This document shows positions 3,870-45,693 of a stretch of 64,000 nt of DNA, piece by piece (positions within the stretch are counted from its first letter, which is position 1; each line of letters starts with the position of its first letter). The translations under genes and the position numbers were made by a program. The notes under the pieces are model-generated. The model saw only the letters and a program-made list of their open reading frames with translations, was not told the origin of the DNA and did not search any database. The stretch spans positions 15,362 to 79,361 of the IMG/VR virus record IMGVR_UViG_3300027905_000001. One strand, given 5' to 3'. The stretch comes from a virus.

Positions 3870-4769
3870 CTAGATACTATCCTCAGCAGCCTTGCGCCGG
3901 ATCTCTAAGTCAGCCTCATTAACTGCGGTCCTGCGCTCTGCAAGTTTAAGATTAGCGTCATCAACTTTGCGCCGATGCTGATCCGGAGTGAGGTCAAAGA
4001 AGTCCGCCAGCCGGTCAAGTGCCTTATGCTTGTCGTGGAACTTAATAGAGATACCATCCTTAGTCTGCCGAATCTCCTGCACCATCGAAGTGTCCACCTG
4101 GTCGCTGTTTTTGATCCTAACGAAGTTGACATCCTGCACCTGGTACTGACCGTCCGGGCCGACTACGCGCTGGCCGTCGAGATATACCCAATCCTGAGTG
4201 GTCCCGAACTCAAAGAAGTCTCCAGGATCGGACATTGCTATTTTTTCGTAGACCTCCAGTACATCGCGCTTGGTAAGAAAGATGTCCTGAGCTATATCAC
4301 CTTTCAGCCGCCGGATCTCTGCCGCAACCTTAACGTCTCTTAACATCCGGCTGCCCTGGACATGTGCGCCGGCCTTTGGACACCCTGCTTTTATTGCGGC
4401 CATCGTTGCGTTGTGATCCTTGACAAAGTGTAGCGCGAATAGCTGCTGCTTTTCTGTGAGCGGCGAACTCTCTACTATATAATGCGTCTCGCTCCCGGCT
4501 GCTTCTTCCGGCCGTTTCTTTCCCTGGTCCGTTGCCGCTTTCTTCCGGCCGGACTTCTTGTCCGTTGCAACGCTCTTCTTTTGCGTTGCATTGCGTTGCT
4601 TGCCTTGCGTTGCGTTCTGCGTTGCATCGTTGGCCGCTTCTGCTTTGGCCCAGTTCTCTCTGTTCTTCCGGCTGCGGATCGTGCCCGCGCTGATTCCGTG
4701 TTTTGCTGCAAGGTCCCGAAGCGTAATCTCTGTCGTCTCGTATTCTGCGCGTATTACTAGCCAATCCAT
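3870..4769 (-). CDS. terS: Phage terminase small subunit (Terminase_2-like) with N-terminal HTH
   Basis: HTH ITLRDLAAKHGISAGTIRSRK; LTEKQQLFALHFVKDHNATMAAIKAG...SRMLRDVKVAAEIRRL resembles TerS DNA-binding core. Confidence 0.65.
   Translation of the reverse strand: MDWLVIRAEYETTEITLRDLAAKHGISAGTIRSRKNRENWAKAEAANDATQNATQGKQRNATQKKSVATDKKSGRKKAATDQGKKRPEEAAGSETHYIVESSPLTEKQQLFALHFVKDHNATMAAIKAGCPKAGAHVQGSRMLRDVKVAAEIRRLKGDIAQDIFLTKRDVLEVYEKIAMSDPGDFFEFGTTQDWVYLDGQRVVGPDGQYQVQDVNFVRIKNSDQVDTSMVQEIRQTKDGISIKFHDKHKALDRLADFFDLTPDQHRRKVDDANLKLAERRTAVNEADLEIRRKAAEDSI
4582..4625. repeat. Tandem octamer TGCGTTGC (4 copies) inside terS, encoding an NATQ-rich linker
   Basis: Direct count in sequence. 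Confidence 0.7.
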
Positions 4770-4812
4770 TTACATTTTCACAACCCTCCCTACATGTTTG
4801 CTACTATATATC

Positions 4813-4841
4813 TTGCATATGTCTTGACACCATGATATAAT
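4813..4841 (+). promoter_or_regulatory. Sigma-A-type promoter (TTGCAT-17-TGaTATAAT)
   Basis: -35 at 4813-4818, extended -10 at 4833-4841; the motif TATAATAAGTTAAGATC is repeated at 54668-54684. Confidence 0.55.
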
Positions 4842-4875
4842 AAGTTAAGATCTAATTTTGAAGGAGGTAAACGGC

Positions 4876-5271
4876 ATGACAAAGCTCGAAATTGCTAAAA
4901 ACATTAATGCCATCAAGGATTTAGGCCGCATTATTGCAACGAATTGGGAGATGGACTTTGTTGAAGGAGGAATCTATGACAATAAGGGCAATGTCGAAAG
5001 CTGGACTGACCGTGATAATTCAAAAGTGGCCTTTAAGCCCGAAAGCACCGGCACGATAACTTATGTCCTTCAATGCAATAAAGTCCCCTGTCACGTAGTA
5101 GACTACACTAGCACTGATGAAACTCGCGCCCTTGGCGCTACTGGCTGTGAAGATGAAGCTGAATGCCTGGTATTACCTGAAACAAAAATGATAATTACCT
5201 ACGTTTCCACTGAAGATGATTTCAACGAAATGGGATATTACTTAGTGGAAATGGAGATTGTCAATGAGTAA
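4876..5271 (+). CDS. Hypothetical protein (131 aa)
   Basis: ATG after GGAGG; track ORF 4858-5271. Confidence 0.5.
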   Translation: MTKLEIAKNINAIKDLGRIIATNWEMDFVEGGIYDNKGNVESWTDRDNSKVAFKPESTGTITYVLQCNKVPCHVVDYTSTDETRALGATGCEDEAECLVLPETKMIITYVSTEDDFNEMGYYLVEMEIVNE

Positions 5272-5869
5272 TCGCCATGGACACCCCCTTACTTCTGAAC
5301 AAAAGGGAGCGAGGGAGATTGAATATCGGAAAATGGCATTGGAATTTCATAAAGAAACAGGACGTTCGCCCCGGATGGCAGACTTACCTTTTCCTTATAA
5401 AATCTTTAAGGTTCACGACACGTGGAATGCATTTCTTGAAGATTGCGGGCTAGAGGTTAACCGTTTAACCACGGACGTTGAGAAATATTCTTTAATATTC
5501 GATTACAAGGAATTAGCTAAAAACTTAGAACGGACTCCTTACGCATTAGAATTTTATAAAAAATTTGGTTGCCAATACGCAGTCCGCAAATTATTTGGAT
5601 CATGGAATGCATTTGTTAAAGCTTGTGATCTTAAATTAAATAGATTCACAGGAGCAGAAAAAGAAGAACTTGTGGAACGCGTCTTGAAATTAGCTAAGAA
5701 ATTAGGTAAAACACCTACAACTCGTGAATTTAATGCACACGCAAAGAAAAGTAATCTATGCACGACGATGGTTATATGTCGGTATTTCGGAACATGGACG
5801 GAATGCCTTGAGTTTTGCGGGTTAGAGCCTAACCAAAATAAAAATTTTAAGCGTAGAAAGAAGGATTAG
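5264..5869 (+). CDS. Repeat protein with three W-NAF...CGLE units
   Basis: Repeats TWNAFLEDCGLE / GSWNAFVKACDL / GTWTECLEFCGLE. Confidence 0.5.
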   Translation: MSNRHGHPLTSEQKGAREIEYRKMALEFHKETGRSPRMADLPFPYKIFKVHDTWNAFLEDCGLEVNRLTTDVEKYSLIFDYKELAKNLERTPYALEFYKKFGCQYAVRKLFGSWNAFVKACDLKLNRFTGAEKEELVERVLKLAKKLGKTPTTREFNAHAKKSNLCTTMVICRYFGTWTECLEFCGLEPNQNKNFKRRKKD

Positions 5870-5871
5870 CG

Positions 5872-6036
5872 ATGGCAGAAACAACAACCGACGACCGCGA
5901 ACGCATGACACTACGCATCCCCCAGGACATTTGGCGCATGATCAAAATGGACCTGATTGACAAAAAAGAAAAGTCGGCCAATGAGCTTATCACAAACTTA
6001 ATATATGAGCACTACAAAGTACCCCGGCCGCAATAG
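5872..6036 (+). CDS. Ribbon-helix-helix (CopG/Arc-like) small DNA-binding protein (54 aa)
   Basis: MTLRIPQDIWRMIKMDL... beta-strand plus two-helix pattern; not in track (<60 aa). Confidence 0.45.
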   Translation: MAETTTDDRERMTLRIPQDIWRMIKMDLIDKKEKSANELITNLIYEHYKVPRPQ

Positions 6037-6086
6037 CTGGGGGTTTTCTTTACCTAAAAATACTTAATATTTATTGTCTTAATGCC

Positions 6087-6115
6087 TTGACACCACGACA
6101 TAAAAGATGTATTAT
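6087..6115 (+). promoter_or_regulatory. Sigma-A-type promoter (TTGACA-17-TATTAT)
   Basis: Shares CTTGACACCAYGAYATAA with the 4823 region. Confidence 0.5.
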
Positions 6116-6287
6116 TAACACATGGAAAACAGCACTCCAGCCCAATCCAGTGCAACAAACGCTTCCCCCGGCCAATTGCGGTCCGGGTCCGCCAAGAAGC
6201 CGAGAGAGAAAAGTTGACCGTGTGTCAGGGAAGAAGATTAATCCCGACAGGCTACAAAGGGAGCCGGGGAAAAAGGAGTTTTAAATT

Positions 6288-6497
6288 ATGAAACAAACTT
6301 ATTACAGCGTTGGTTATTACTCAGGAAGATCGAACAGCACTAGCACGGCGTTTTTTGATACTAAAGAGGCGGCTGAAAAATTTGCAGATCATGATTACAG
6401 GGATAACGTGGTAGCGCATCACGTGAGCAAGCCTGAGACGATTGCGAAATACGATGAGCTAGTTGCTATGACGGCGTTTGAGCTTAGAGACCGTTAG
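6288..6497 (+). CDS. Hypothetical protein
   Basis: Track ORF; AGGAG upstream. Confidence 0.5.
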   Translation: MKQTYYSVGYYSGRSNSTSTAFFDTKEAAEKFADHDYRDNVVAHHVSKPETIAKYDELVAMTAFELRDR

Positions 6498-6610
6498 GAT
6501 TTGCAGATGGCACCGGCCAGCACCCGGTGTAATGCACTAGCAGGCGTCCAAAGTCGCCGCAAATGCATCCCGACAGCTCGCAAGGAACGGGGAAAAGGAG
6601 GTCAGGACAG

Positions 6611-7057
6611 ATGCTCTATCACAGATTTACTAACTCATCAAACGTAATGTCCAACTGGGGTCACGCAATGTTTGCGGCCAACAGGGACGCGGTCGAAAAT
6701 TACGGTAGTAAAGAGTTTATCTTTAAATCATCTAGGGACAATAGCAAAACGATCAAGTCGCTCAAATCACTGATTATCAAAACTTGGAAGTACGATCAAA
6801 AAAATGGCTTTACCGGGGACTTTGGCAACGGCTGCACAGATGATTACTACTACAACGTCAAGGATAATGCAGTGGACGCTATTAGTATTTACAACAGCTT
6901 TGACCCGTCTAGCGTTGTGGAGAGCGCCGATGCTTGGGACTCCGAGCTTTATCAATGGTTTTGGGAGCGTATCGCGGAGCCTAACGGCATTATGGCAGTT
7001 ACAACTCAAGATGGGGCAATAGTATTTGATGCAGACTTAATTAAGGAGGTATGTTAA
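6611..7057 (+). CDS. Hypothetical protein
   Basis: ATG 6611 after AAAGGAGG; track ORF 6563-7057. Confidence 0.5.
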   Translation: MLYHRFTNSSNVMSNWGHAMFAANRDAVENYGSKEFIFKSSRDNSKTIKSLKSLIIKTWKYDQKNGFTGDFGNGCTDDYYYNVKDNAVDAISIYNSFDPSSVVESADAWDSELYQWFWERIAEPNGIMAVTTQDGAIVFDADLIKEVC

Positions 7058-7318
7058 ATGTCTAATGAGGATGACGTTATGTTTTTCAAAATAGCAAAGG
7101 TTAAAGCCGCTATCAGCAGGGTCCTAGACGGGTGCGTAAACGAGTTGCCGGATATCCAGTTTGGATGGAGCGGATCAGTTATCGAGGTTTATTTATCCGG
7201 CGGTAATTATCAAGTCCGCAACCTTATCGAGTCCCATTTTGTAAATAGCAGGAGGTATAAAGGCGTTACAATTACAAACAACGACACCAAAAAGCGTATC
7301 AGCTTTATTTTAAATTAA
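7058..7318 (+). CDS. Hypothetical protein
   Basis: Track ORF. Confidence 0.45.
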   Translation: MSNEDDVMFFKIAKVKAAISRVLDGCVNELPDIQFGWSGSVIEVYLSGGNYQVRNLIESHFVNSRRYKGVTITNNDTKKRISFILN

Positions 7319-7339
7319 GAAATTGAAGGAGTGTTAAAA

Positions 7340-7558
7340 ATGAAACGATTAGACATTTTTAAAAGCGAAGGTGGATACAGATTAGCATTGGGAATCTACA
7401 ACGACAGCCCCGTAATTGACAAGTCTCCTTGGTTCGAAACCAAGGAAGAGGCCGAAAAAGCAAGGCGCGAAGTCATAGAAGAAGATGAGCGAGAAGCCAA
7501 AATTGAGCAGTATATCCAAGATGGCAATATCGAGGCCCTCGAAAACATGGATAAGTAA
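7340..7558 (+). CDS. Hypothetical protein
   Basis: ATG after GAAGGAG; acidic C-terminus. Confidence 0.45.
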   Translation: MKRLDIFKSEGGYRLALGIYNDSPVIDKSPWFETKEEAEKARREVIEEDEREAKIEQYIQDGNIEALENMDK

Positions 7559-7652
7559 TTGCAGAGGATTAGGAGCCTAAAAACTCCTAATAATGCGCTA
7601 GGCAAGCGGTTCCAAGCCCGCGCCAATCGCAATTTTGAAAGGTGGAGCAATC

Positions 7653-7889
7653 ATGAAATACACCATAGCTGAATACCACGGCATAGACCGGCACCAAATG
7701 CAAGCCCATACCGAGGAAATCATTACCAAGCTTGAATTTATTCGAACAACATGCACGGATGCCGAATCGCTCGAATACACTGACGCCCAACTCGAATTTT
7801 ACCGCGAAGAACTAGCCAGTAAATCCCTGCTTATGTCATCATGGTGGGAAGTTGAGAACTACATGCGGAAAGGTAGGAAAATAGCATGA
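7653..7889 (+). CDS. Hypothetical protein
   Basis: ATG after AAAGGTGGAG. Confidence 0.45.
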   Translation: MKYTIAEYHGIDRHQMQAHTEEIITKLEFIRTTCTDAESLEYTDAQLEFYREELASKSLLMSSWWEVENYMRKGRKIA

Positions 7890-8077
7890 CCATCTACATC
7901 CATGAGTTTTACAAGGACAAGGAAAAGGCGCTCGCATTGGCTGAACTACCGGACGAACTAGATTATCACCGATTTGTCCACGGCTGTGAGCCTAAAAAGG
8001 TGAACATAGTCCCTTATTGGGCAGATTGCGACAAGTACAAGGCGAATAAGTCCACCATGACACTGTTTATTAGCTAA
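7886..8077 (+). CDS. Hypothetical small protein
   Basis: Track ORF, 4-nt overlap with upstream gene. Confidence 0.4.
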   Translation: MTIYIHEFYKDKEKALALAELPDELDYHRFVHGCEPKKVNIVPYWADCDKYKANKSTMTLFIS

Positions 8078-8157
8078 CATCAAGGCTTTTAGCCTTGGCT
8101 CAGCCGCTTTTTGAGCGGTTCAGCGAGGACTAAAAACGAATGAAAGAGGTAATTTAC

Positions 8158-9078
8158 ATGAGCATGATCAACGAACAACTAGCCCAACGATCAAAGGAAA
8201 ACATGAGTTTTTCCGACTACAAACCCGGCAGCGCAACGGCTGAATTCAACCAGGAAATAGCCAACGTCACCACGTTAGTTGAATCGGCCAAGCTCAGGGT
8301 ATCCGACGAAGGGAAAGCCAAGCTAGATCGTTTCCTAGCCTCTTACACCTCTCGTTATGCCGCATGGACCAATAAGCGCAACGCAAATGGTGCAGGACAT
8401 GTTAGTGTTATGATCGCAGGCCCAGCTAACTACAACATGAGAGCGCACGAAAAGTACATGAGCCGTGAAGGTAATCTCTGGAAAGAATACGAGGAATTCC
8501 GAAACCCTGAGTATAAAATTTCCTCCATCGTCGCAGGTGACAGAGTTATAAAATCCAATGATGTCAACGCTATTGAAAAATTGCAGGAGAAAATAGACGG
8601 ACTTGAAAAAATGCAGGAATTAATGAAAGCTTGTAACGCCATCATCCGTAAAAAGAAGCTGACCGACGAAGAGAAGATTGCTGCAATGGTAGAAGCTGGA
8701 GCCAGCGAAAAAGCCGCAAAAGAAACCTTGACCCCTAATTTTATGGGCAGAATAGGTTTTGCCTCTTATTCGCTCAGTAATAACAACGCAACGATCCGAA
8801 ACGCCAAGCAACGAATATCCCAGCTTGAGAAGATCGCTGCACGCGGCACGCAAGAGACTGTCATAGAATCAGACGCGGAGGAAACAAACGGCATACGCAT
8901 AGTTGACAATGTTGAAGCGCATCGGCTGCAAATATTCTTTAATGGCAAGCCATCGGCAGAAGTTCGAACACAGTTAAAGAAAAATGGATTTAGGTGGACG
9001 CCTAGTATTTCCGCGTGGCAGTCGTATCGAAGTGAGAGCGCAAACCGGGCAGCGCGTGAAATAGTGGCAGCAATGTAA
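8158..9078 (+). CDS. Hypothetical protein, C-terminus resembles DUF3560-like domain
   Basis: C-terminal motif LQIFFNGKPSAEVRTQLKKNGFRWTPSISAWQ; assignment from memory. Confidence 0.4.
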   Translation: MSMINEQLAQRSKENMSFSDYKPGSATAEFNQEIANVTTLVESAKLRVSDEGKAKLDRFLASYTSRYAAWTNKRNANGAGHVSVMIAGPANYNMRAHEKYMSREGNLWKEYEEFRNPEYKISSIVAGDRVIKSNDVNAIEKLQEKIDGLEKMQELMKACNAIIRKKKLTDEEKIAAMVEAGASEKAAKETLTPNFMGRIGFASYSLSNNNATIRNAKQRISQLEKIAARGTQETVIESDAEETNGIRIVDNVEAHRLQIFFNGKPSAEVRTQLKKNGFRWTPSISAWQSYRSESANRAAREIVAAM

Positions 9079-9162
9079 TTATATCGCGGGACCATCTTTG
9101 GCCCTGCTCCAAATGTCCGATTATGGGCACTTGGAGGAGAATCAAAATTTAGAGGTGATCAA

Positions 9163-9351
9163 GTGGCGGAAACGTGGTTCTCTCGACTTAAAACAGAGAT
9201 AGAAGATTCGAGAGACTTGCAAGAAATTCTTGGTGTTAAAGTTATCGAGCATCTTTTGTGGAACAATATCTCTCGCGAACAATACGAAACTCTCTCTAGC
9301 CTGCGCGTAAAAAGAATCCTGGAAAATTGGCACGAAGAATTTTTGGCTTAA
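9163..9351 (+). CDS. Hypothetical small protein
   Basis: Track ORF (GTG start). Confidence 0.35.
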   Translation: MAETWFSRLKTEIEDSRDLQEILGVKVIEHLLWNNISREQYETLSSLRVKRILENWHEEFLA

Positions 9352-9406
9352 ATCCACGCCGGACTATTCCGGTTTTTTCCCAACTAAAATTAAGGAGGAA
9401 TAACTT

Positions 9407-10021
9407 ATGTTTCATGCGTTCACGCTCGAACAAGCGAACCTCAGAGAGGTCCAAGGTTGGAAGGTCGGCCAACATGTCCAAGTCAAAGAATGGCGTGGTA
9501 CTTACGAAATCGAAGGCTACCACCAATACGGAAGGCAAAACGAGTACACCACTGTATACCTTGCCAAGCTCAAGAAAGACGGTACTAAGAGCAAATACAG
9601 CGGCGATACACCTATCGCTAACCTCATGCCATTGGGAGCGGCACAACCAACAACAGACAGCGCAGGACGAACAGCACTGCAGGCGGCACAGGAGCTATTC
9701 GGTAGCGGCTTTGCTAAACACGGATGGTATAACACGGATCGCGAATCACTGGTAAAGGTTGAGACGATCAGTAAGACAGGACGCGTCAAGGTGCAAGATA
9801 TAAGCGTCAAGGCTGGAATTACGGCACGTTCAAAGACTGTAGATGGACATAAAGTTTACAGTCAAGAAGATCGCCTGGTAAACTTTGCGGATCTCGAATA
9901 CGGTCTAAGTGGAGATATAAAAACATTCACGCCGCGCCTTTTTTGGGGTGAATGGGGCTTTTGGCATGATGGGGAAATTATCAAGGCCCCAGATATGAAG
10001 CTTACGTGGTTGCTAGATTAA
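9407..10021 (+). CDS. Hypothetical protein
   Basis: Track ORF with AGGAGG upstream. Confidence 0.5.
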   Translation: MFHAFTLEQANLREVQGWKVGQHVQVKEWRGTYEIEGYHQYGRQNEYTTVYLAKLKKDGTKSKYSGDTPIANLMPLGAAQPTTDSAGRTALQAAQELFGSGFAKHGWYNTDRESLVKVETISKTGRVKVQDISVKAGITARSKTVDGHKVYSQEDRLVNFADLEYGLSGDIKTFTPRLFWGEWGFWHDGEIIKAPDMKLTWLLD

Positions 10022-10031
10022 CATAATTTAA

Positions 10032-10055
10032 AGCCGGACATCATCCGGCTTTTTG
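10032..10055 (+). terminator. Rho-independent terminator
   Basis: Stem agccgga/tccggct, loop catca, then TTTT. Confidence 0.7.
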
Positions 10056-10059
10056 GCGT

Positions 10060-10530
10060 TCCCGTTATTATCTTTCCGGCTCCATAGGCTTATACGCCAC
10101 CCTAGCCCATGCAAGCCCTAGAACGCCGTATAAGCCCCCATAATCTCCGTGTGGTCACTATGCAACCTATCGTTATCCAAGGCCCTTATATACCGTTCTG
10201 TGTCCTATCATATCGCAAGCCCTACAAGACGTTTTAAGCCCTCGAAATATCAAAGGCATAACTATGTCAATCCCTAACTATTCAACGCCATACAGGTGCC
10301 ATTCTGCGCCTGTGATAACGCTCTGCGCCTATGTGCCGATACCCTAACGACGGCGGCAAAACGTCCTCTAATTACCTCAATTTGTCGCCTATTGTCGAAG
10401 TTCGCCTGATTTCACCCTGATTTTATGACCATATTTCGACATTCCCAAAATTCTCTCGACATTCCCAAAATATCGGTTTCTTGTAATTTTTATAAAATCG
10501 CTCCACCGAAAAAATATCCCCAGCTTGTAA
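10060..10530. other. GC-rich non-coding region with short direct repeats (ori / pac / ncRNA candidate)
   Basis: No credible ORF; repeated aagccct, ctgcgcct; exact 16-nt direct repeat tcgacattcccaaaat at 10436 and 10456. Confidence 0.4.
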
Positions 10531-10532
10531 AA

Positions 10533-10896
10533 TTATTCGTCCTCGAATCGACAACCGCGGTTACTCTTCATCATCCGATCTCTTGCCATAAACGCCATAC
10601 TGTTCTCGAACTCTTCCCATTTTCGAGCTGTCTCGTATCGCTTGTATGCACTTAGGTATTCGTCGCAATATGAAGCAGGAACATTGGCGCAGCTAGAACA
10701 ACTAGAACTAGAGCGTCCTATATCGCGATATATTCGGGGTTTGTAGCATCTGCATCGAGGCGGTTCTCTCACTAGTTGCTCCCTCCTTAATCCATAGGCA
10801 ATGGTCAACGTCATACTTCCTGCATAAGGCGCAGTTGGTTCGTTCAAGGCTTTTGTCTATTGCGCTGAATTCTTTGCAGCTTCTGTTCTCTCCCAT
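10533..10896 (-). CDS. Cys-rich hypothetical protein(s); two overlapping frames, possible frameshift
   Basis: Track ORFs 10708-10896 and 10533-10847 overlap in different frames. Confidence 0.3.
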
Positions 10897-10933
10897 AAAT
10901 TAGCCCTCATTTTAGGATAATTTTCGAACAATA

Positions 10934-11068
10934 TTAAAGCATGCTTTTTTAGTTTGAATTAAAGCATGCTTTTTTGGTTTTTGTTTATGTAATTAAGGCA
11001 TGCTTTTTCTATGTCTGAAATTAAGGCGTGCTTTTATGTACCACCATCAAGATTAAGGCATGCTTTTT
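10934..11068. repeat. Five direct copies of ATTAARGCRTGCTTTT (palindromic core AAGCATGCTT)
   Basis: Copies starting 10934, 10959, 10993, 11021, 11053, spaced 25-34 bp, in a ~440-bp intergenic region. Confidence 0.75.
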
Positions 11069-11342
11069 GAGTAAAAAAGTGAACACCCTCAATTAAGAAG
11101 GTGTTCGAGTGAGAATAGAGAAGGAGGACAAAATTAAAAGCCCTTGCGAGCTTGTCAAATATTCAAAATAAAGCCGGTTCCAGATCGTAGAACCGGATTC
11201 TCCTTCTACACACGGTAGATGAGTTAAATAAACGAAGCACCGAACGACCACGATACGTAGGTCAATTCGATGCTTCTCAATGTTATAATCATAAACCTTT
11301 TACAGCTCAAATGTGGTAATAAATCGGTAATATTCTGGTAAT

Positions 11343-11915
11343 CTATACGTATTTACTAAAATAAAGGTATCTTTGAAATAATGGCCCTAATATCTCCCAC
11401 AATACTTCAAGCGCTTCTCTGTTAATCTTCCTTAACATTTCGTTTGTGATATAAACTCTACCAACAGAATGGCGCTCGTTAAACACAATCTCAATGTTCC
11501 TCCATGTCATGACTTCAAAGTATTTAGACCTAATAACGGTTTCCTGTTCCCTCGTTAATGCCTTCAGCGCTTCATCAATCTGCTCCATCTCAAGCGTCTT
11601 AAACCTCATCTTCGACCGATCCTCGTCAATCCAAGCCTCAACTAATTCCCTCGTAACCTCTCTGCGCCCTGCTATATGCTCGGTCGGCGAAGTTGTAGTT
11701 GTTGCGTGCGGCATACCGATAATTCTACTTACGCTGTTCTCGAATAACCATAGCTCTCCCGCGCTCAATGCTTGTTCCCATACCAGGATTCTCTGCATAG
11801 TTGTCACGACTTCTGCTTTATGTTTTTTATAGAGTTTCAAGCGTTCTTCGAGTATGTTTTGGGATTCTTTTATCATTGCTATGGTTATTACCTCCTCTCT
11901 ACCGTTTTGCGCCAT
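11343..11915 (-). CDS. Putative sigma-70 region-4-like transcription regulator
   Basis: C-terminal LTREQETVIRSKYFEVMTWRNIEIVFNE HTH pattern. Confidence 0.35.
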   Translation of the reverse strand: MAQNGREEVITIAMIKESQNILEERLKLYKKHKAEVVTTMQRILVWEQALSAGELWLFENSVSRIIGMPHATTTTSPTEHIAGRREVTRELVEAWIDEDRSKMRFKTLEMEQIDEALKALTREQETVIRSKYFEVMTWRNIEIVFNERHSVGRVYITNEMLRKINREALEVLWEILGPLFQRYLYFSKYV

Positions 11916-22455: not shown

Positions 22456-23290
22456 TTTTGTTACCTCCCTTGGCTTTTAAGTTCTTGCCCCATTTAACAC
22501 AATTTCCCAGCCACGTATTAATCTGTGATCTTGGTTTACTTTTTACATCAAGCGGCTTATCTAGTTTGTCGAAAGACCAGTCCTTAATCGCTCCCAAGAT
22601 ATCTATGGTTGGGTATCGTTCTTGAAGCTCTCGGTACATTTTCAATTCCTTCGCCCTGTCAATCGGATAATCCTTAACTTTTTCAAGTGTGCGAATTAGG
22701 TCTATTTCATCAGGCAGAAGAATGAGATCATTTTCTTTTCTTTCTTTTACTTCCTTTCCTTTACTATTCTCTTCTTTAGGGATTTCTGTAGGAAATAATC
22801 CATCTTCAAGAGGATTAATGTCTACATTAACTACAGATGGTAGGTTGTTACCGTCAACATAAACCATATTTACAGTAAAATTATCAGTTTGCTTAGGTGG
22901 AGAAATAAGTAGATATTCAGATATGAGCGTTATCTCTTTGCGTCTTTCTACAGATTTGAAGTATCTTTTTTGGATTCCTCCGCTAGTAAGTATTTCGTAT
23001 TTTAGATACAAGGATGAATTGAAAAATTCCCACTTAATGCAATCAGAAACTATCTCGGTGATAATATTAATGTCTACATTAACCTTACTGGAGAGTAGTA
23101 ATTGTTCGCGCTCTGTCCATTTATAGAAATATCCTTCCTTATATATTTTCATAAGAAGTTTGATTAAAACCGCAAATCCAGTGATCTTATGCTTTGCTTC
23201 AATAAGCAAAACTTTGTCGTCTTGGTCCATGTCAATATCGAGGGGAAAATAATCCAATCCCTCTTTTTGCGGTCTTGCCAAGTCATTCAC
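22370..23290 (-). CDS. Replication initiation / replisome-organiser protein (DnaD-like)
   Basis: N-terminal DYFPLDIDMDQDDKVLLIEAKHKITGFAVLIKLL typical of phage replisome organisers. Confidence 0.55.
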   Translation of the reverse strand: MNDLARPQKEGLDYFPLDIDMDQDDKVLLIEAKHKITGFAVLIKLLMKIYKEGYFYKWTEREQLLLSSKVNVDINIITEIVSDCIKWEFFNSSLYLKYEILTSGGIQKRYFKSVERRKEITLISEYLLISPPKQTDNFTVNMVYVDGNNLPSVVNVDINPLEDGLFPTEIPKEENSKGKEVKERKENDLILLPDEIDLIRTLEKVKDYPIDRAKELKMYRELQERYPTIDILGAIKDWSFDKLDKPLDVKSKPRSQINTWLGNCVKWGKNLKAKGGNKTGSNSIDQGDSKPWETDPILSEILRGRS

Positions 23291-25563: not shown

Positions 25564-26210
25564 CTAAATGTAATCATTCACGTTTTTCCTAAACAATCCA
25601 CCCATACTCTTCTGCCATACTGACTTATTATTTTTGCCAATTTCCTGCTTGGTCATGACAGGTTTTGTCGCTGCTTCGAGTTCTGGCATGCCGGATTTTA
25701 TTCTGGCGTTGAAGCATTTCCTTGAGATGTTATTGGATTGTGCGAGTTGGATGTAGCTCGTGGTCATAAGGCGCATCTCTTGGAAAATCTAGTATCAATT
25801 GGAGTAGTGGCTGCTATTTCGGCGCTCCATCCCCTGCCCATTCTGGTAACAAAAGTACCCTTTGATATTCCGTTTCTCACAGCTATGTCCTCATATTCCT
25901 TGGGATATTTGCGCTTCTTTTCAGCCATGATCTTAATGATCGTATCTCGCTCAATAGAAGGTATCTCTGACGCTTCTTTAGGTGACATGCCCCCTCTCGT
26001 TACGCGAGAATAAAACAATGACCTGCTTATGCCGTTTCGTTCTGCTATGATTAGCCATTCACCCCATTTGTGGTAGTTGACAGGGGTTGTTATAGCTCGC
26101 TCAATACTCCACGCTAGGTCACGCACTCTTGCTGTGACTACTCTTTCGTTGATGCCATTTTGTGCCGCCATAGCATACTTGTCAGGATTGATATAGAAGG
26201 AGTAAGACAT
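25564..26210 (-). pseudogene. Protein with four HTH-like repeats (NGIS...GWS...TTP), split by a -1 frameshift
   Basis: Fourth repeat LAQSNNISRKCFNARIKSG continues in the second frame; shift maps to a T4 run near 25785. Confidence 0.45.
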
Positions 26211-37192: not shown

Positions 37193-37208
37193 AGTAAATA
37201 ATATTAAC
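37193..37208. promoter_or_regulatory. Operator-like motif GTAAnTnATATTAACG, copy 1
   Basis: Copies at 37193, 37293, 37583 around the cro/cI pair. Confidence 0.5.
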
Positions 37209-37292
37209 GTCGAGATCAAATAAAAAGGAATTGCTTAGAAAAAGCGTGGACAAGTATTGCGTAAATGTAAATACAATTTATAATGTAACGTG

Positions 37293-37308
37293 TAAGTAAT
37301 ATTAACGC
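37293..37308. promoter_or_regulatory. Operator-like motif, copy 2 (overlaps cro-like stop codon)
   Basis: gtaagtaatattaacg. Confidence 0.5.
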
Positions 37309-37544
37309 AATGCGTCCAACACCGCCTCGGATTGGGCTTCCATTTCTACGTCTGGGAACAACTCGTTAACTGGAGTATCAAACAAGAAAGATAGCTTCAG
37401 CATTAACTTGCCACTAGGCGTTGCGTTGCCGTTCTCAATATACCTTATCATGGTCCCAGTAACTCCGACGGCAGCGCCTACTTTATCCTGTGTGCCATAG
37501 GCTCTTCTTAGTTGTTTGAATCTTTCTCGTTTATGTCTTGTCAT
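37302..37544 (-). CDS. Cro-like HTH XRE-family regulator (first gene of leftward early operon)
   Basis: AYGTQDKVGAAVGVTGTMIRYIENG; divergent from CI-like gene. Confidence 0.6.
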   Translation of the reverse strand: MTRHKRERFKQLRRAYGTQDKVGAAVGVTGTMIRYIENGNATPSGKLMLKLSFLFDTPVNELFPDVEMEAQSEAVLDALR

Positions 37545-37582
37545 TCTGTATCACCACCTTTGTCCTTGATAGAATATTATCA

Positions 37583-37598
37583 CGTAAATCATATTAAC
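37583..37598. promoter_or_regulatory. Operator-like motif, copy 3, in divergent promoter region
   Basis: gtaaatcatattaacg; -10-like TATACT at 37612-37617. Confidence 0.5.
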
Positions 37599-37645
37599 GC
37601 AATATGTAAATTATACTTTCTTTTATGGAAATGAGGAAAATATTT

Positions 37646-39784: not shown

Positions 39785-40194
39785 GATAATATCAAGTATT
39801 TTTTCAGTCGGAATATTTTTTTCAATATCTATATCCTCATCTCCTGCCTGAATTTATGTTTTACCAGTCTCTATATACTAGAACGTGTGTTCTTAATTTT
39901 CAAGGGGTAATTTGTCGCAAAAGAAATAAATCGTTTCTCTTCCCCTTTCTCTCGCTACCCGTAGGAACAAAGTCCTACAATCAGTCCTAGATATAATTCA
40001 GAATATTTATTTAAGTTATTGACAGTATACGCTATAACGTTTGTCGAAATCGCGTGAAATAAAGGAGGCCAAATGTGAATATTTTGTGATTATAAATTAT
40101 ACTTAAGTCTACATATTATAATACCTGCTACATTTTTGTGTTAGCAGGATTAATCCTATCCTCTGTGGAAGTATTTTCCTATGGTGGTGAGGCG

Positions 40195-40416
40195 ATGGAT
40201 TTAGAAGATAAGTTAAAGGATAACAAAATACAATACATACTAGACAAGCGTGATATGTCGCAAAAAGACCTTGCCGCAACGCTCGGGTGGTGGCCGAGTG
40301 ACATAAGCGACATCGTTAACGGTAAGGTTAAGCGCCTTACGCTCATTCGCGCTTCGATGATATCCGTTGCTCTCGGGTATTCGGTTGAGTATATTTGGCC
40401 TACTTTATTCAAGTAG
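40195..40416 (+). CDS. HTH XRE-like regulator
   Basis: ATG after GGTGGTGAGG; MSQKDLAATLGWWPSDISDIVNGK. Confidence 0.5.
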   Translation: MDLEDKLKDNKIQYILDKRDMSQKDLAATLGWWPSDISDIVNGKVKRLTLIRASMISVALGYSVEYIWPTLFK

Positions 40417-40431
40417 GCCAAATATTTTTTT
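40396..40431 (+). terminator. Rho-independent terminator overlapping gene 3' end
   Basis: 9-bp stem tggcctact/agtaggcca then T-run. Confidence 0.65.
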
Positions 40432-40553
40432 ATATTTTTTTAGTCATAAAATTAGACTTTCGTCTATATACTTTATCACACCCAGTAAGCCACCGTCACA
40501 CCACGTCTTACACTATACTACGCCAGTCAGACAAAATTTTGAGAGGTGAGAAT

Positions 40554-40760
40554 GTGAAGAAAAGAAGAACTTTTTGGGACGGAGATGATCTTTGCTCAAA
40601 GCTAGACGCAATACCAGAAAATGAACTAAGTACCATAATCCGCATGGCACTACGAGCATGGTTTAAGATCGACAGCAAGCCCGAACTAACCGTTACCGAC
40701 GCAAGGCAGATAGCGCAGGAGCTGGTAAGGCAACGCAAAGTTGAAAGGAGCGAACGCTAA
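40554..40760 (+). CDS. Ribbon-helix-helix-like small protein
   Basis: GTG start after GAGAGGTGAG; RRTFWDGDDL...STIIRMALRAWF. Confidence 0.4.
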   Translation: MKKRRTFWDGDDLCSKLDAIPENELSTIIRMALRAWFKIDSKPELTVTDARQIAQELVRQRKVERSER

Positions 40761-40921
40761 TGTTCTGGAAGAAATCCATTAAAGCCTCCAAACTCTCAGG
40801 GCTTATCAAGGAAATAGCTAAGGCGGCATCATTAGTACCTTATGGGGATGGCGCGCTGGACTTAGGTTGGGAGGAACTAACCGTCAGTGATCTACTCGAA
40901 TGGATGGAGGAAAGTTTATAG
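40760..40921 (+). CDS. Hypothetical small protein (53 aa)
   Basis: TAATG coupling to upstream gene; not in track. Confidence 0.35.
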   Translation: MFWKKSIKASKLSGLIKEIAKAASLVPYGDGALDLGWEELTVSDLLEWMEESL

Positions 40922-40938
40922 GAAGTGAGGTTGAAATA

Positions 40939-41166
40939 ATGGACATAACTAAAATCCAAAAAATCGTTCGCAAGGCTATCAAGGACTACGCCATTACCGC
41001 AAAGTACGATGAGGAAATTCTAGTATCATTTCTCAGCGTGGATATTTTCCGGGAGATCAACGAGGATTCCCCGGCACCTCTCTCGGATCCCAAGGCTCCC
41101 CCTCGCCGCAATACTAACCAGAATGCATTAGGTCTGGTAAATCACGAAGCAGGTGAAACGCCATGA
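40939..41166 (+). CDS. Hypothetical small protein
   Basis: ATG after GTGAGG. Confidence 0.4.
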   Translation: MDITKIQKIVRKAIKDYAITAKYDEEILVSFLSVDIFREINEDSPAPLSDPKAPPRRNTNQNALGLVNHEAGETP

Positions 41167-42491
41167 GTGAAAAATCATCGTCCGTAAAGCCCGACCTGAT
41201 CGGCTTGACATCCTCTACTCTGGTCAAACTTGGACGCTTTGCCCTACGTCATATCGGCAGTCCCAACAACTCCTATGCGAACAAGATAATGCTGAACTGG
41301 AAACGCAATGACATATGCACCGAAACCAAAGAGCGAGGCAAGGATTACACAGAGAAGAAATACCCTACGCTAGTGGAAAAGACAATGAAGGGTCATAATC
41401 GAGTACTTAGATACAAGATACCCACCGGTCTAAATCCGCAGAAAGTCATGAAATCCCTCTACGACATCGAGTTCGATCTCAAGTCAGAAGTCCTATTCAA
41501 GCGACTTGAGAACGATCCCAAAGCGCACTTCTCACTCACTATCTTATCCGGCAAACTGTTAGACATTATCAACTACTCCAACGAGGCCAGTATTACTCCA
41601 GATGGCAAGGAGTTAAGCAAAGGTCTATGGATACCTCTAGGGTGGTCAAGAAGGGGCTTGGAACAACTTAATTTAGCCTCTAGCAACAGCCCTCATCTTA
41701 TGATCGGAGGGGCTACAGGAGGCGGCAAGAGCATCCTTGGCAGGCTTATCCTTGCTACCCTCCATATCCGCTATAACCGTGATGAATGCCGACTATGGCT
41801 CTGTGACCTTAAACATGGCAACGGCACAGCAAGGCTAGGGAAAAACCCTCTCCTTGTAGATAGGACTATTTCTGATCCGGGCGAAGCAGAACAAATGATG
41901 GACGATCTCTCTGTGATTATTGGCGAGCGATATAATTTATTTAAGGAGTATGAGTGCGACGATTTACAGGCGTTTAACGAGGAATATCCAAGATTGAGAT
42001 TGCCGCGCATTGTGGTTTATGTGGATGAATTAACCAAACTTGAGGGCAAGGAGTTCTCCAGGGCTCGTGAAAAGATGACTAAAGTCACGGGGGAATCCAG
42101 GGGTGCAGGAGTGCATGTTATTATCTCTTGTCACAGGCCCACAGCTAACCTTGTGTCCGGCACGATGAAGAACAATATCTCTGCCGTTGTCGCGTTTAAT
42201 TGCAACGCTGTATCGGCTCGTGTGTTGCTTGGAGAAGATCCGGAGGATTACAAGGCAGCCAGCATGATTGATCCAGATATCGAAGGTCGAGCATTGTTTA
42301 AATTTAAAGATGAGGTATTGCTGCAGGTCCCCTACATCGACAACCATGCAATCAAGTCCCTTATGGCCAACTATCAAAAAGCGATAATTAAAGGTAAGGT
42401 CGAGCCAGTGATACAGGCTGTTATTTCCACTAGGGTGGTTGAGCACTCAGTCGGGCACTCACTCGGTCATACTATTGAGCACCCCCAGTGA
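41163..42491 (+). CDS. FtsK/SpoIIIE-family DNA translocase-like ATPase
   Basis: Walker A GGATGGGKS, Walker B VVYVDE. Confidence 0.75.
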   Translation: MSEKSSSVKPDLIGLTSSTLVKLGRFALRHIGSPNNSYANKIMLNWKRNDICTETKERGKDYTEKKYPTLVEKTMKGHNRVLRYKIPTGLNPQKVMKSLYDIEFDLKSEVLFKRLENDPKAHFSLTILSGKLLDIINYSNEASITPDGKELSKGLWIPLGWSRRGLEQLNLASSNSPHLMIGGATGGGKSILGRLILATLHIRYNRDECRLWLCDLKHGNGTARLGKNPLLVDRTISDPGEAEQMMDDLSVIIGERYNLFKEYECDDLQAFNEEYPRLRLPRIVVYVDELTKLEGKEFSRAREKMTKVTGESRGAGVHVIISCHRPTANLVSGTMKNNISAVVAFNCNAVSARVLLGEDPEDYKAASMIDPDIEGRALFKFKDEVLLQVPYIDNHAIKSLMANYQKAIIKGKVEPVIQAVISTRVVEHSVGHSLGHTIEHPQ

Positions 42492-42614
42492 TTGTACTCA
42501 ACGATTCAATGCGCTTTATAGGCTCCTTTGGTCATGCCGTGCGGTCCGTAAAGTGCTTTATTATCCTTACTTTTTTATTTTGTATTTATTTTATATTTTT
42601 GCGAGGTGAAAATT

Positions 42615-43244
42615 GTGAACTTAGTGGCATATGGCAAGCAACGAGACGAACGAATTATGGGGCTAGTAGGGCTTGGGACAGCCTTTACGCGAAGCCAAAT
42701 AGAGCGAGTTATATTTAAGGGAAGTAAGCGTAAGGCTCAGACTAGACTGCAGGTGCTATCCGATTCAGGGCGACTAAAAAAGATTATCCGCAGTCCCCAC
42801 GAACCAGCCATCTATTGCCTCAAAAAACCCCGAAATATCGATCATTATTTACTTATCAATGAAATCTATTGTGCCGTAATGTCTCAGAAAAAGTCTTGGC
42901 ATATCGTCAAGTGGCAATGGTCATATCCAATTATGGAAGGTAAGATTTGGGCAGACGCAATGGTTGATATTTACGACCAACTCAATAAGCGTAGGCATGT
43001 TATATTTGTTGAGGTTGAGCGTTACGCAGACCGTAAGTTCGAGAAGGATAAAAAGTATTCAGCCATTACCAGCGCGAACTGGACGAAAGAAGAGTGGGCG
43101 ATTAAGGAGCCTACAAGGATATTGTTCCCGGCAATCCTAGTTGTCACCGAATGCAAATTAGAGGTCAAAAGCGAGTTGGATTTCTTTGTTGCCACGATGG
43201 ACCAAGTCAAAAAAGACATTTACTCTATTATCTTAAGGAGGTAA
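42615..43244 (+). CDS. Replication-relaxation family protein (putative)
   Basis: GTG after GAGGTGA; N-terminal winged-helix-like segment; assignment from memory. Confidence 0.4.
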   Translation: MNLVAYGKQRDERIMGLVGLGTAFTRSQIERVIFKGSKRKAQTRLQVLSDSGRLKKIIRSPHEPAIYCLKKPRNIDHYLLINEIYCAVMSQKKSWHIVKWQWSYPIMEGKIWADAMVDIYDQLNKRRHVIFVEVERYADRKFEKDKKYSAITSANWTKEEWAIKEPTRILFPAILVVTECKLEVKSELDFFVATMDQVKKDIYSIILRR

Positions 43245-43248
43245 CACC

Positions 43249-43467
43249 ATGGGTAAACTAGGAAAAGTGACCACAAAGGCCACCTATGGAATCCTGAATC
43301 TGGCGATGAAACCTATTTACGATCAGATGAAAAAAGAGAGAAAAGAAGAAGTTAAAAGATGGAACAAATCGCTAGATATAGCTTCTCAGGATGCAATGGC
43401 CGAGGCTAGATATTTTGAAGTAAGGCAGCCGTTTGATTCGATTATCCACAAGCACCCATTGTGGTAG
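43249..43467 (+). CDS. Hypothetical small protein
   Basis: Track ORF. Confidence 0.4.
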   Translation: MGKLGKVTTKATYGILNLAMKPIYDQMKKERKEEVKRWNKSLDIASQDAMAEARYFEVRQPFDSIIHKHPLW

Positions 43468-43490
43468 TAATGACAATAGTAATGACTTTT

Positions 43491-43570
43491 AGCCCCTTCG
43501 TAAACCGAGGGGCTATTTTAATGCCCTGACATAACGAAACCCCAGCATTTGCCGGGGGTTAGTTTTTATT
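43491..43570 (+). terminator. Two tandem hairpin terminators
   Basis: agccccttcg...cgaggggct + ATTTTAAT; aaccccagc...gccgggggtt + AGTTTTTATT. Confidence 0.55.
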
Positions 43571-43645
43571 CTCTATTATTTATGGCTATTCGGATTATAT
43601 GGTGGAAAATGAGTTTGGAATTTCCAGTTTTATAATAAATAATTA

Positions 43646-43700
43646 CTACTATTATAGCGTTATCGCTTGACAAATTATAGCGATAACGCTATAATAGTAG
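43646..43700. promoter_or_regulatory. Perfect 22-bp inverted repeat enclosing a consensus promoter (TTGACA-17-TATAAT)
   Basis: ctactattatagcgttatcgct (43646-43667) is the exact reverse complement of 43679-43700; -35 at 43667-43672, -10 at 43690-43695. Confidence 0.75.
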
Positions 43701-43763
43701 TAACAGCTAAAGATTACATGAACCCGACAGCCCATAAGGGGCGGGGCGAGAGGAGAATATAAA

Positions 43764-44624
43764 ATGGCAAATGAAGTCGTCAAGGAATACTACAAATGGG
43801 ATGAAACAGGTGAAGCTTTTGGCATAAGTATAAGCTACGATGCCGGAGATGACTGTGGTCCAGTTGCTGGGCTTAAACTAAGTGGTGGACAACCAAAAGA
43901 AGTCAACGGTCAAAATGTCGTTTGGTTCGAAAAAACAACCAAAGGTCAGCCCGTCGCCATAAAGTATAACAGCCGTCCCGATTTAGCAGCCCTTGTGAAC
44001 GAGTATAAAAAGTTTCAGGCTGAGCAACAAACAAGGCATAATACCCGGGCTGCTGCACATCAAGCCGAGCGGGAAGCCATAGACAACCCTCTACTTGAGG
44101 ACATGGAAGCAGAAGCTGTTGAATTGCGGAAAAAGATTCCGACCGGGCATATCGAGGTTGATGTCGAGGATAATGGCAATCTTGACGGCTATCCTAATTT
44201 AAAATACTCAGTAAACGGCGTTGAATTGCCTTGGGATAAGGTCAACCATATTGGCACTGCGAGTGCGATTCGCCCAGGCGCATTAGGTTCTTTTGCTCAA
44301 ATTTATGTCGTATCTATCGCCAAGGATCAAATCGAACAAATCAAAAAAGAGCAGGAAGAGAAATCGGCAATCAACCAAGCTAAAAAAGAGGCTTACCAAA
44401 GAGAATTAACTGGGACTATAATCCCTCCGGCGGCCTTAGAGGCTTACAACTATTACCACGGTGACGCAGAACTAGCATGGGAAAAAGAAGATGAATCCTC
44501 TTGGGCTCTTATTGAACGATGGACCACTTATATCGAGGCACAACATGGGATTGCCCCTCGTAAATTACAGCACATGGTTTCGGAATCCGCGCGCGAAGAG
44601 AATTATGGGATCAATGAGGGTTAG
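43764..44624 (+). CDS. Hypothetical protein (286 aa) under the palindromic operator
   Basis: RBS GAGAGGAG; track ORF. Confidence 0.5.
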   Translation: MANEVVKEYYKWDETGEAFGISISYDAGDDCGPVAGLKLSGGQPKEVNGQNVVWFEKTTKGQPVAIKYNSRPDLAALVNEYKKFQAEQQTRHNTRAAAHQAEREAIDNPLLEDMEAEAVELRKKIPTGHIEVDVEDNGNLDGYPNLKYSVNGVELPWDKVNHIGTASAIRPGALGSFAQIYVVSIAKDQIEQIKKEQEEKSAINQAKKEAYQRELTGTIIPPAALEAYNYYHGDAELAWEKEDESSWALIERWTTYIEAQHGIAPRKLQHMVSESAREENYGINEG

Positions 44625-44645
44625 TGGAGAGAGTGTTTGAAAAAA

Positions 44646-44680
44646 GAAAGAGCCGTAATCAATCGGCTCTTTCTGGATAA
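44646..44680 (+). terminator. Rho-independent terminator
   Basis: gaaagagccg / cggctctttc stem then T-rich. Confidence 0.6.
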
Positions 44681-44784
44681 CTTTTTATTTCAATCCACGC
44701 CTTACGGCGACAATCCTTGATGGGATTTATTACCCATAATATAATCCAAATAGCAGTATATGTCAAGACTAAGGAGGGCATTTC

Positions 44785-45492
44785 GTGAAAAAGAAACATC
44801 GGTCTATTTCGCAGATACTTGATAGATCGAAATCTGCCGAATCAAGAAGAGCTATCACTATAAATTGGTCAAAGTCATGGGAAAATGAGACCATGGAACT
44901 CATACGTAACCTTGAACAGGCTGTAAGGGCCATGGATTACGATCAGCTATGCATTAATACCAGGCAGCTTAAGGCGGTTACTCAAAAACGTTTTGGAGCC
45001 CTGCCAAATATATTTATGCACCTCACTAAGGCTGGTGCCGCAGAGAAAAACCCGGAAAAAGAACCCGAACCATTAGCCAATGCAGCTGTACAAGATATAC
45101 ACAAAAAGCAGGATGTCCCAAAAGAACCAGATGAGCCGAGCCATGCGGAGGAGCAGCATGTGCCCGGAATCTGCATAGACTGTGGTGTCAGTTTTAATGC
45201 TAAAACCAGCCGCCAAAAGCGGTGCCCCGAGTGCCAAGTTGAACACAACAAGGCGTTACGGTTAGCCGCGGCCAAGGCAACTCAAGATGTCAAAAGAGAT
45301 AGGCCTCTTTTGGATATCATGGAGGGATACATTACGGTAAAAGAATGGGCGAGCAAGCACGGTAAGAGTCCGTCCAGCGCTCAGAATATATTGTCCAATT
45401 CCCCTACTCTTGTACCAGCTGCCAGAAAGGTGCGCAATCCTCGCGGCGGCGTGGATATCTGGGTCGTACCAAAAGAGACAATATGGCCTTAA
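44785..45492 (+). CDS. Hypothetical protein with C-terminal zinc ribbon
   Basis: GTG start after AAGGAGGG; CIDCG...CPEC. Confidence 0.45.
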   Translation: MKKKHRSISQILDRSKSAESRRAITINWSKSWENETMELIRNLEQAVRAMDYDQLCINTRQLKAVTQKRFGALPNIFMHLTKAGAAEKNPEKEPEPLANAAVQDIHKKQDVPKEPDEPSHAEEQHVPGICIDCGVSFNAKTSRQKRCPECQVEHNKALRLAAAKATQDVKRDRPLLDIMEGYITVKEWASKHGKSPSSAQNILSNSPTLVPAARKVRNPRGGVDIWVVPKETIWP

Positions 45493-45513
45493 TAAAATAA
45501 AGGAATGATAGCG

Positions 45514-45693
45514 ATGGAACTTAAAGACGTACTAACAGGTCCCGAAGCTGCGCAACTTTGGAGCATTGGAGAGTCAACAGTCCGCAATGCAGCTGCGGCG
45601 GGTAAATTCAACGAAGACGAAGCTCGAAGGGCAGGGAAAAACTGGCTAATCACCAGAGAAGGCATGAAAAGAGTATTTGGTGATCCTAACTAA
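45514..45693 (+). CDS. Small HTH DNA-binding protein (excisionase-like)
   Basis: LTGPEAAQLWSIGESTVRNAAAAGKF...WLITREGMKRVFG. Confidence 0.45.
   Translation: MELKDVLTGPEAAQLWSIGESTVRNAAAAGKFNEDEARRAGKNWLITREGMKRVFGDPN

Follow-up and report, generated by a model that had tools for sequence, protein, structure and literature searches.

The intergenic region behind the sigma-like regulator gene of this phage raises the question of what a row of near-palindromic repeats does at the entrance of an operon, and whether it serves the regulator, replication or something else. In the window, that is, the whole stretch of 64,000 nucleotides that was analysed, ATTAARGCRTGCTTTT occurs five times on the plus strand, with starts at 10933, 10958, 10992, 11020 and 11052 (array 10933-11068). 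The preliminary description had reported five such repeats, 25-34 bp apart, in an intergenic region of some 440 bp. The repeats are real, each starting one base below the position given there; the copy-to-copy distances are 25, 34, 28 and 32 nt; and the region measures 446 bp, from the regulator stop codon at 11343 to the next minus-strand start at 10896. Dinucleotide shuffles of the window gave no match to ATTAARGCRTGCTTTT, and none is expected by chance. Outside the array, the 64-kb window holds no further copy at one mismatch or less, and allowing up to three mismatches added a single match, at chance level. When the five copies were aligned with their flanks, a conserved block of 16-17 nt with sharp borders stood out from unrelated flanks and spacers.

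Transcription on the minus strand meets copy 5 (11052..11068) first; on that strand this copy reads AAAAAGCATGCCTTAAT, as does copy 3 (10992..11008). Copy 4 (11020..11035), which reads AAAAGCACGCCTTAAT, is the only one with a variant core (GCACGC). Copy 2 (10958..10975) reads AAAAAAGCATGCTTTAAT and contains a perfect 12-bp palindrome, AAAGCATGCTTT, and copy 1 (10933..10950) is nearest to the gene, its core ending 43 nt before the ATG of ORF-A. The core had been described as a perfect palindrome. This is so in copies 1 and 2, where the 10-bp AAGCATGCTT is intact, but not in copies 3 and 5, which keep nine of the ten positions (AGGCATGCTT), nor in copy 4, which keeps eight (AGGCGTGCTT). Copy 1 overlaps a weak -35-like hexamer (TTAATA, 17-nt spacer, TAAAAT). 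An independent Logan assembly contig (L024) is 100% identical over four copies, its end falling inside the array; it represents the same phage and is the sole contig with an exact protein match.

Most of the window belongs to a temperate, siphovirus-type phage of a Desulfosporosinus-like host and is read on the minus strand. The phage order begins with a cI-like gene and a serine recombinase (37.6-39.5 kb) and proceeds through cro-like, anti-repressor, SbcC-like and RecT-like genes to a DnaD-like initiator, a DnaC-like loader, SSB and a Holliday-junction resolvase, followed by the sigma-like regulator (11343..11915, minus strand). The regulator shows weak similarity to DUF722 and to sigma-70 region 4 and fits the LtrA-type family of late activators (PMC3753634). 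Its 177-aa form, whose start would lie at 11876 judging from the protein length, matches a protein of Candidatus Desulfosporosinus infrequens with 100% identity. In the leader, four terminator-like hairpins are found on the minus strand (11256-11237, 11196-11174, 11153-11138 and 11106-11081), and the T-run of the last one abuts the array. The first gene past the array is ORF-A (10708..10896, minus strand), which encodes 62 aa, is Cys-rich (CxxCx7C) and has a homologue in the related phage L026. ORF-B (10533..10772, minus strand; 79 aa, also Cys-rich) has its own AAGGAGG site, and its L026 homologue lies directly upstream of terS. A terminator hairpin with T-runs on both strands (10030..10052) closes the ORF-A/ORF-B transcript as well as a convergent plus-strand block.

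Several other features of the window were recorded. The 470-nt non-coding stretch downstream of ORF-B (10053-10530) carries short direct repeats, namely TCGACATTCCCAAAAT twice (Spo0A-box-like TGTCGAA on the reverse strand), AAGCCCTAGAA three times and TCTGCGCCTGTG twice, and has a fold z-score of about -3.6 on both strands; it gave no Rfam match, and the relatives hold no homologue of it. The plus-strand block (about 4810-10530, 5.7 kb) has its own promoter-like site, TTGACA-N17-TAAGAT, and encodes an HNH_repeat protein, a phrog_19458 'primase' and a 204-aa ORF. Since a homologue of one of its genes adjoins a tyrosine integrase in L010, the block may be a satellite-like or mobile module. Between its small ORFs lie two plus-strand matches to the Twister-P5 ribozyme (6502-6558 and 7560-7621; 39.7 and 44.1 bits), both above the Rfam gathering score. 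A plus-strand module by the serine recombinase (40138-45693) includes a FtsK/SpoIIIE-family ATPase (41163-42491), an unusual lysogeny cargo for a phage. A 148-aa protein (phrog_1065; 25764-26210, minus strand) has three tandem HTH-like segments (NGIS..F..R...GWS.E.A.TTP) and may bind DNA repeats; no link between it and the array was made.

The regulator gene has a candidate binding site of its own. Immediately after its stop codon, the minus strand carries the 7-nt direct repeats ATTACCA, ATTACCG and ATTACCA with an 11-nt period (11314..11342), the only cluster of the ATTACCR motif in the window. Next comes a conserved block, AAAAGGTTTATGATTATAAC, which contains a -10-like TATAAC (11282..11300, minus strand), is invariant in the window, L001, L013 and L026 and would form the core of the late promoter; in other relatives the block is TRTGnTAYAAT-like. 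Fifteen phages whose regulators are 75-83% identical (L001-L014 and L026) were taken as relatives, and they share one layout: the regulator stop codon; direct repeats with an 11- or 22-nt period and a sequence that varies by phage; the conserved block (AAAAGGTTTAT..TTATAAC or TRTGnTAYAAT-like); then a leader with a terminator hairpin, an SD and a small Cys-rich ORF. For RinA, LtrC and ArpU, experiments showed that 7-nt direct repeats immediately distal to their own genes are needed (PMC3753634, Quiles-Puchalt et al. 2013). On this precedent, and given the conservation in the fifteen relatives, the ATTACCR element, and not the five-repeat array, is taken to be the binding site of the Ltr-type regulator.

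The preliminary description had also suggested that the array could be an activator-dependent late promoter served by the sigma-like protein. Its position downstream of the regulator gene and upstream of the ancestrally late ORF-A, ORF-B and terS agrees with this, and the TP901-1 late activator Alt is reported, in a reference cited in PMC3753634, to bind several direct repeats. However, an Ltr site comprises 2-4 direct repeats, each about 7 nt long, just past the activator gene, which is the form and place of the three ATTACCR copies with their -10-like box (11342-11282), whereas the array consists of 16-17-nt units that begin 275 nt past the regulator stop codon, with the ATTACCR element 240-400 bp upstream. 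Nor does the array go together with its supposed activator: at up to three mismatches its motif occurs in none of the fifteen relatives, which keep the regulator-linked repeats with their -10-like block. The late-promoter suggestion is therefore not supported for the array, for which it is very improbable.

Comparison with L026 shows where the array stands in the late operon. In that phage the regulator, the short direct repeats, the -10-like box, a terminator, the SD and the ORF-A homologue are followed on one strand, without interruption, by a small membrane ORF, the ORF-B homologue and terS. It follows that the plus-strand block of the window is an insertion between ORF-B and terS, and that the array and its surroundings represent about 160 nt of extra DNA, reaching from the T-run of the last terminator to the SD of ORF-A. 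The insertion cuts the late operon, and terS is now 6 kb off. The array is thus lineage-specific within this phage group. Searches for close relatives that bear it gave no match among GenBank phages (megablast, blastn and tblastn) or plasmids. A two-copy 16-mer pattern found nothing in viral contigs and, in genome and metagenome contigs, only unrelated matches in Zoogloea, in Saccharibacteria and in a 47-nt tandem repeat. A k-mer search with ORF-A returned no homologue other than itself, and none of ORF-B was found in viral contigs. In the collections searched, then, no close relative keeps the array of the window. In every relative a terminator intervenes between the putative late promoter and the late gene that comes first, so that one may ask how late transcription gets past it. 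The relatives examined usually carry a single terminator in this leader, L026 maybe two, against the four hairpins of the window.

Two of the unrelated matches deserve a description. The 47-nt tandem repeat (L019 1141-1325, L023, L029-L031 and L056, from peat-type metagenome and IMG/VR contigs) has about four copies, each with an 18-mer identical to AAAAAAGCATGCTTTAAT, and is faced by the 3' ends of both its neighbours, an RHH-like ORF and a gene for a C5 DNA methyltransferase of 508 aa. The Zoogloea match (L016 3568-3612, L018, L020 and L022) is a pair of 18-bp palindromes, ATTAAAGCGTGCTTTAAT and ATTAAAGCATGCTTTAAA, 31 nt apart. It is intergenic, lies between GC-rich flanks, looks like an operator and has a motif related to that of the window.

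Although the close relatives have no such array, many unrelated phages do. IMG/VR was scanned with the relaxed pattern GCATGCTTTT-N12-42-RGCATGCTTTT, which yielded 44 viral loci representing 35 DNA-level lineages of 32-66% GC. At least three copies are present in 25 of the 35 lineages; the class includes 22 irregular arrays of 3-6 copies with unrelated spacers and six exact tandem repeats. Three control motifs were scanned alongside, and about 7 kb of flanking sequence per locus was considered. Swapping the polarity of the flanks left 8 loci, a CAGCTG core gave 13 and a GCTAGC core 7, the last being a weaker control because it contains CTAG, which is generally avoided in bacterial genomes. The multi-copy cases with GCTAGC or CAGCTG cores were tandem or apparently coding repeats. 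The array of the window thus belongs to a motif class that is enriched over the three controls and has an invariant core.

A consensus was drawn from 44 sites in 11 arrays, oriented by the downstream gene, and in that direction reads A5-GCATGC-TT(T/A)TT. The core is invariant in these sites except in copy 4 of the window, and conservation is higher in the upstream A-run than in the downstream T-run. Core variants are single and asymmetric (ACATGC twice, and GCACGC in copy 4 of the window), with no compensating second change. Spacings of 24-27 nt are commonest in the class, followed by 28-35 nt. The array of the window has GCATGC in four copies and GCACGC in one, an upstream run of A4-6 in all five, a spacing of 25-34 nt and the same polarity relative to the downstream gene. 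Its 3' arm is YTTAAT rather than TTTTT, an arm common to the 47-nt tandem-repeat group (L019, L023, L029-31 and L056), and 43 nt separate its last core from ORF-A, against 18-25 nt in most class members.

The surroundings of these arrays are partly recurrent. In nine of them, the last copy ends 18-25 nt ahead of the next start codon on the same strand. The next gene is a Cys-rich ORF of 55-65 aa in L033, L045, L046, L048 and L069, and the primase itself in L038; in L037 an excisionase-like HTH gene begins 87 nt past the array. A DNA primase or helicase gene lies in the fetched flank of 11 of the 25 lineages with at least three copies, in several directly beside the array, and these enzymes fall into three families (AAA_25, DUF3987 with NrS-1 HBD, and DUF5906). 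Within the AAA_25 group the primases are 55-67% identical, and every member keeps the array while spacers and copy number differ. The order in L045 (promoter-like sequence, GC hairpin, four copies, SD, 57-aa Cys-rich ORF, primase) mirrors that of the window (late promoter, hairpins, five copies, SD, ORF-A). At least three members of the class (L043, L042a and L044), and the tandem-repeat array of L019/L029, lie between convergent genes. No protein family common to the window and the other array loci was found by BLAST of the ORFs within the fetched flanks; a search for a shared binder by clustering these BLAST results likewise gave lineage-specific families only. PaMx25, a characterised phage with a primase 53% identical to the L037 enzyme, does not carry an array. 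In the literature searched there was no paper with the motif in a relevant context, and the A5-GCATGC-T5 class, common to phages with unrelated neighbours and hosts, appears to be undescribed.

Taken together, the invariant core, the near-palindromic units, the unrelated spacers and the recurrence in unrelated phages over the controls point to sites recognised by a sequence-specific, probably dimeric, DNA-binding protein. The view of the array as a binding array for a dimeric protein, already put forward in the preliminary description, is upheld to that extent, as a deduction from these four features. The core variants likewise fit protein recognition rather than a hairpin, since they are single, asymmetric and uncompensated. 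We tentatively propose, at somewhat less than even odds, that the array is a multi-site operator for a dimeric protein that gates entry into the operon. The five repeats would be a lineage-specific copy of a recurrent phage cis-element made of near-palindromic sites of about 16 bp, each bound by a dimer, and the row of occupied sites, which reaches nearly to the ribosome-binding site, would gate transcription into ORF-A and ORF-B. It might act as a roadblock, as a repressor array that occludes a promoter, or, if a weak local promoter is used, as its upstream sites. Also in favour are the arrays that persist upstream of homologous primase genes despite their divergence, the consistent position ahead of the next start codon, the polarity and spacing of the copies in the window, which agree with those of the class, and the separate site that accounts for the regulator. 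The array stands in the late-operon leader, after the Ltr repeats, the late promoter core and the four terminator-like hairpins, and before ORF-A, ORF-B and, ancestrally, terS. Arrays of the class usually fill the space from an upstream hairpin or gene end to the next SD, so that gating of operon transcription is the role to which their placement most readily points.

Several observations weigh against this operator. No binding protein was found in the analysis. Since no BLAST-level family links the window to the other array loci within the fetched flanks, nothing speaks for one binder encoded by all these phages, and it is difficult to name a host factor that hosts so different would have in common. 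For the members that lie between convergent genes, an operator in a leader makes little sense. The frequent primase and helicase neighbours fit an origin at least as well, and the sigma-A-type promoter beside the array is weak, its start being predicted inside the SD.

The reading to which those neighbours lead, that the array is a replication origin, a replisome-loading site or an iteron-like element whose sites are bound by an initiator and whose A/T tracts aid bending or melting, is rather unlikely on balance but is the most serious rival; an origin was also among the suggestions of the preliminary description. It would account for the primase or helicase genes of three families near 11 of the 25 lineages and for arrays that persist while the neighbouring primases diverge, and it has precedents in the iteron arrays upstream of rep genes and the palindromic iterons of lambda ori. 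Yet three unrelated primase families and a phage of the DnaD/DnaC type would all need one common site. In the window the array lies 11 kb from the DnaD-like gene, and its motif is absent from the replication module. The nearby phrog_19458 'primase' is unrelated to the primases of the class and is without Pfam, NCBIfam or PDB support. The array adjoins neither a DnaA-box cluster nor an AT-rich unwinding element, an AT content of 65-78% being reached only within the array itself; the spacing is irregular, at about 2.5 turns; and the array is absent from the fifteen relatives and from PaMx25. It is therefore probably not the main origin of this phage. The DnaD-like gene module has an exact repeat pair of its own: the 18-nt direct repeat ATTAATGTCTACATTAAC, an imperfect palindrome, occurs twice inside the initiator gene (22814-22831 and 23066-23083), adjoined by a purine-rich run (22731-22777), and this pair is a candidate for the canonical origin.

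An action through nucleic-acid structure, with paired copies serving as terminators, insulators or RNA processing and stability elements at operon boundaries, is improbable. Because each unit is self-complementary, neighbouring copies can pair into long hairpins flanked by A- and T-runs; copies 1 and 2 give a perfect 12-bp stem followed by U6GGU5 on the plus strand, and the variant bases of the window would still pair as G-U in plus-strand RNA. In the window, as in L045, the array also adjoins terminator hairpins; some members of the class are found at convergent junctions; and only the terminator-like flank polarity (5' A-run, 3' T-run) is enriched. A purely structural element, however, predicts no preference for GCATGC, whereas 44 loci were found with this core against 7 with GCTAGC and 13 with CAGCTG, and no compensatory core variants were seen. 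A single unit cannot fold as an intrinsic terminator, paired units would leave loops of 13-35 nt, ill suited to intrinsic termination, and a terminator scan marked the neighbouring hairpins only. On the minus strand the array shows no unusual folding (z = -1.7). It is more improbable still that the small terminase recognises the array as a pac or cos site, or that the array arose by local duplication and has no function. The ancestral position between the late regulator and terS and the N-terminal HTH of the terS protein would suit packaging, and copies 1 and 2 do look like a recent 25-nt duplication. But L026 has a homologous terS and no array upstream of it, and in the window terS now lies past the inserted block; a better pac candidate is found inside terS itself, in both phages. 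This is a run of TTGCG/AACGCAA pentamers and heptamers in the 5' part of the gene (4581-4627 in the window; about 4415-4455 in L026, where it is seen at the DNA level), which is possibly the pac site. Lack of function, for its part, leaves an invariant core among diverged spacers and the recurrence in 35 lineages unexplained.

Further candidates were tried and set aside. As had been said at the outset, the array is not CRISPR-like: its units are 16-17 nt and its spacers 7-17 nt, where a CRISPR array has repeats of about 24-40 nt and unique spacers of comparable length, and no cas gene is among the annotated ORFs. Operators of the CI/Cro type were rejected, the immunity region having ATATTAACGCAAT-type repeats and no GCATGC motif. 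Three direct copies and an inverted one lie around the cro-like gene and the intergenic region of cI and cro (37200-37610) and are probably the immunity operators. A transposon end or MITE does not fit, since the window has neither a second, inverted end nor terminal inverted repeats, and restriction-site avoidance does not fit a GCATGC frequency in the window that is about as expected. Rfam searches of 9900-11400 gave a single match, at chance level (E = 0.13), and the folding z-scores are driven by the terminators and the self-complementary repeats. Tandem sigma-A promoters were rejected as the main reading because the extended -10 register (cATGcTTTAAT) has T at the critical -11 and the alternative register has no TG. 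The Cox-box, CtrA-box, boxA, ComK-box and sigma-54 motifs presumably each fail to match the array unit, on register or at conserved positions.

For the class as a whole, it is a possibility, put forward with slightly greater reserve than the operator proposed above, that the A5-GCATGC-T5 arrays form a widespread, undescribed cis-element recognised by a single conserved factor. This would be a phage protein, small and fast-evolving, or else a host protein found in very different bacteria. Such an element would mark or insulate replication and late-operon entry, as a gate, an insulator or a replisome-loading site. If the arrays are bound by a specific factor, they would be a portable control or replication element used across unrelated replication proteins and very different hosts. 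They would then open a new way into the question of how replication and late gene expression are timed in temperate phages, and operon boundaries or origins in the genomes of uncultured phages could be annotated by a simple sequence signature.

Repeat arrays that bind proteins are already known as a kind of element, and the present one can be set beside several. Iteron-type origins, such as lambda ori with its four palindromic iterons bound by O dimers and the iterons of plasmids and P4, resemble it in their several direct copies, internal dyad symmetry and A/T tracts, and the class often lies beside a primase or helicase gene. The array of the window differs from them in its irregular spacing, in having no adjacent unwinding element or DnaA boxes and in its distance from the replication module, and the class differs in that one motif is common to phages with unrelated replication proteins. 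The palindromic sites of ParB, KorB and Noc (14-16 bp; for instance the Noc site ATTTCCCGGGAAAT and the KorB OB TTTAGCSGCTAAA) are likewise built on a palindromic, GC-rich core of 6 bp with A/T arms and occur several times per replicon. They are dispersed, whereas the array units are packed 25-35 nt apart, and no ParB-like gene was identified in the window, where annotation is partial beyond 39.5 kb. The REP/BIME elements of bacterial chromosomes share clustered, short palindromic units in intergenic positions between co-directional or convergent genes. Those elements are host-specific, dispersed genome-wide and of alternating orientation, while the array occupies one locus in the window and its motif recurs in phages of very different GC content.

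The nearest comparison by position is with the Ltr sites of Gram-positive temperate phages (RinA, ArpU and LtrA-C; PMC3753634). In both cases short direct repeats lie in the leader of a late operon, and the neighbourhood is the same, with the end of the early or replication module, the activator gene, a terminator and terS. Ltr sites, however, are 2-4 repeats of 7 nt placed directly after the activator stop codon and specific to that activator (PMC3753634), whereas the array is made up of near-palindromic 16-bp units spaced 25-34 nt, follows the terminators and is missing in phages that have the same regulator. Two elements that are easily merged can thereby be told apart in this leader, a conserved Ltr activator site with a precedent and a lineage-specific array.
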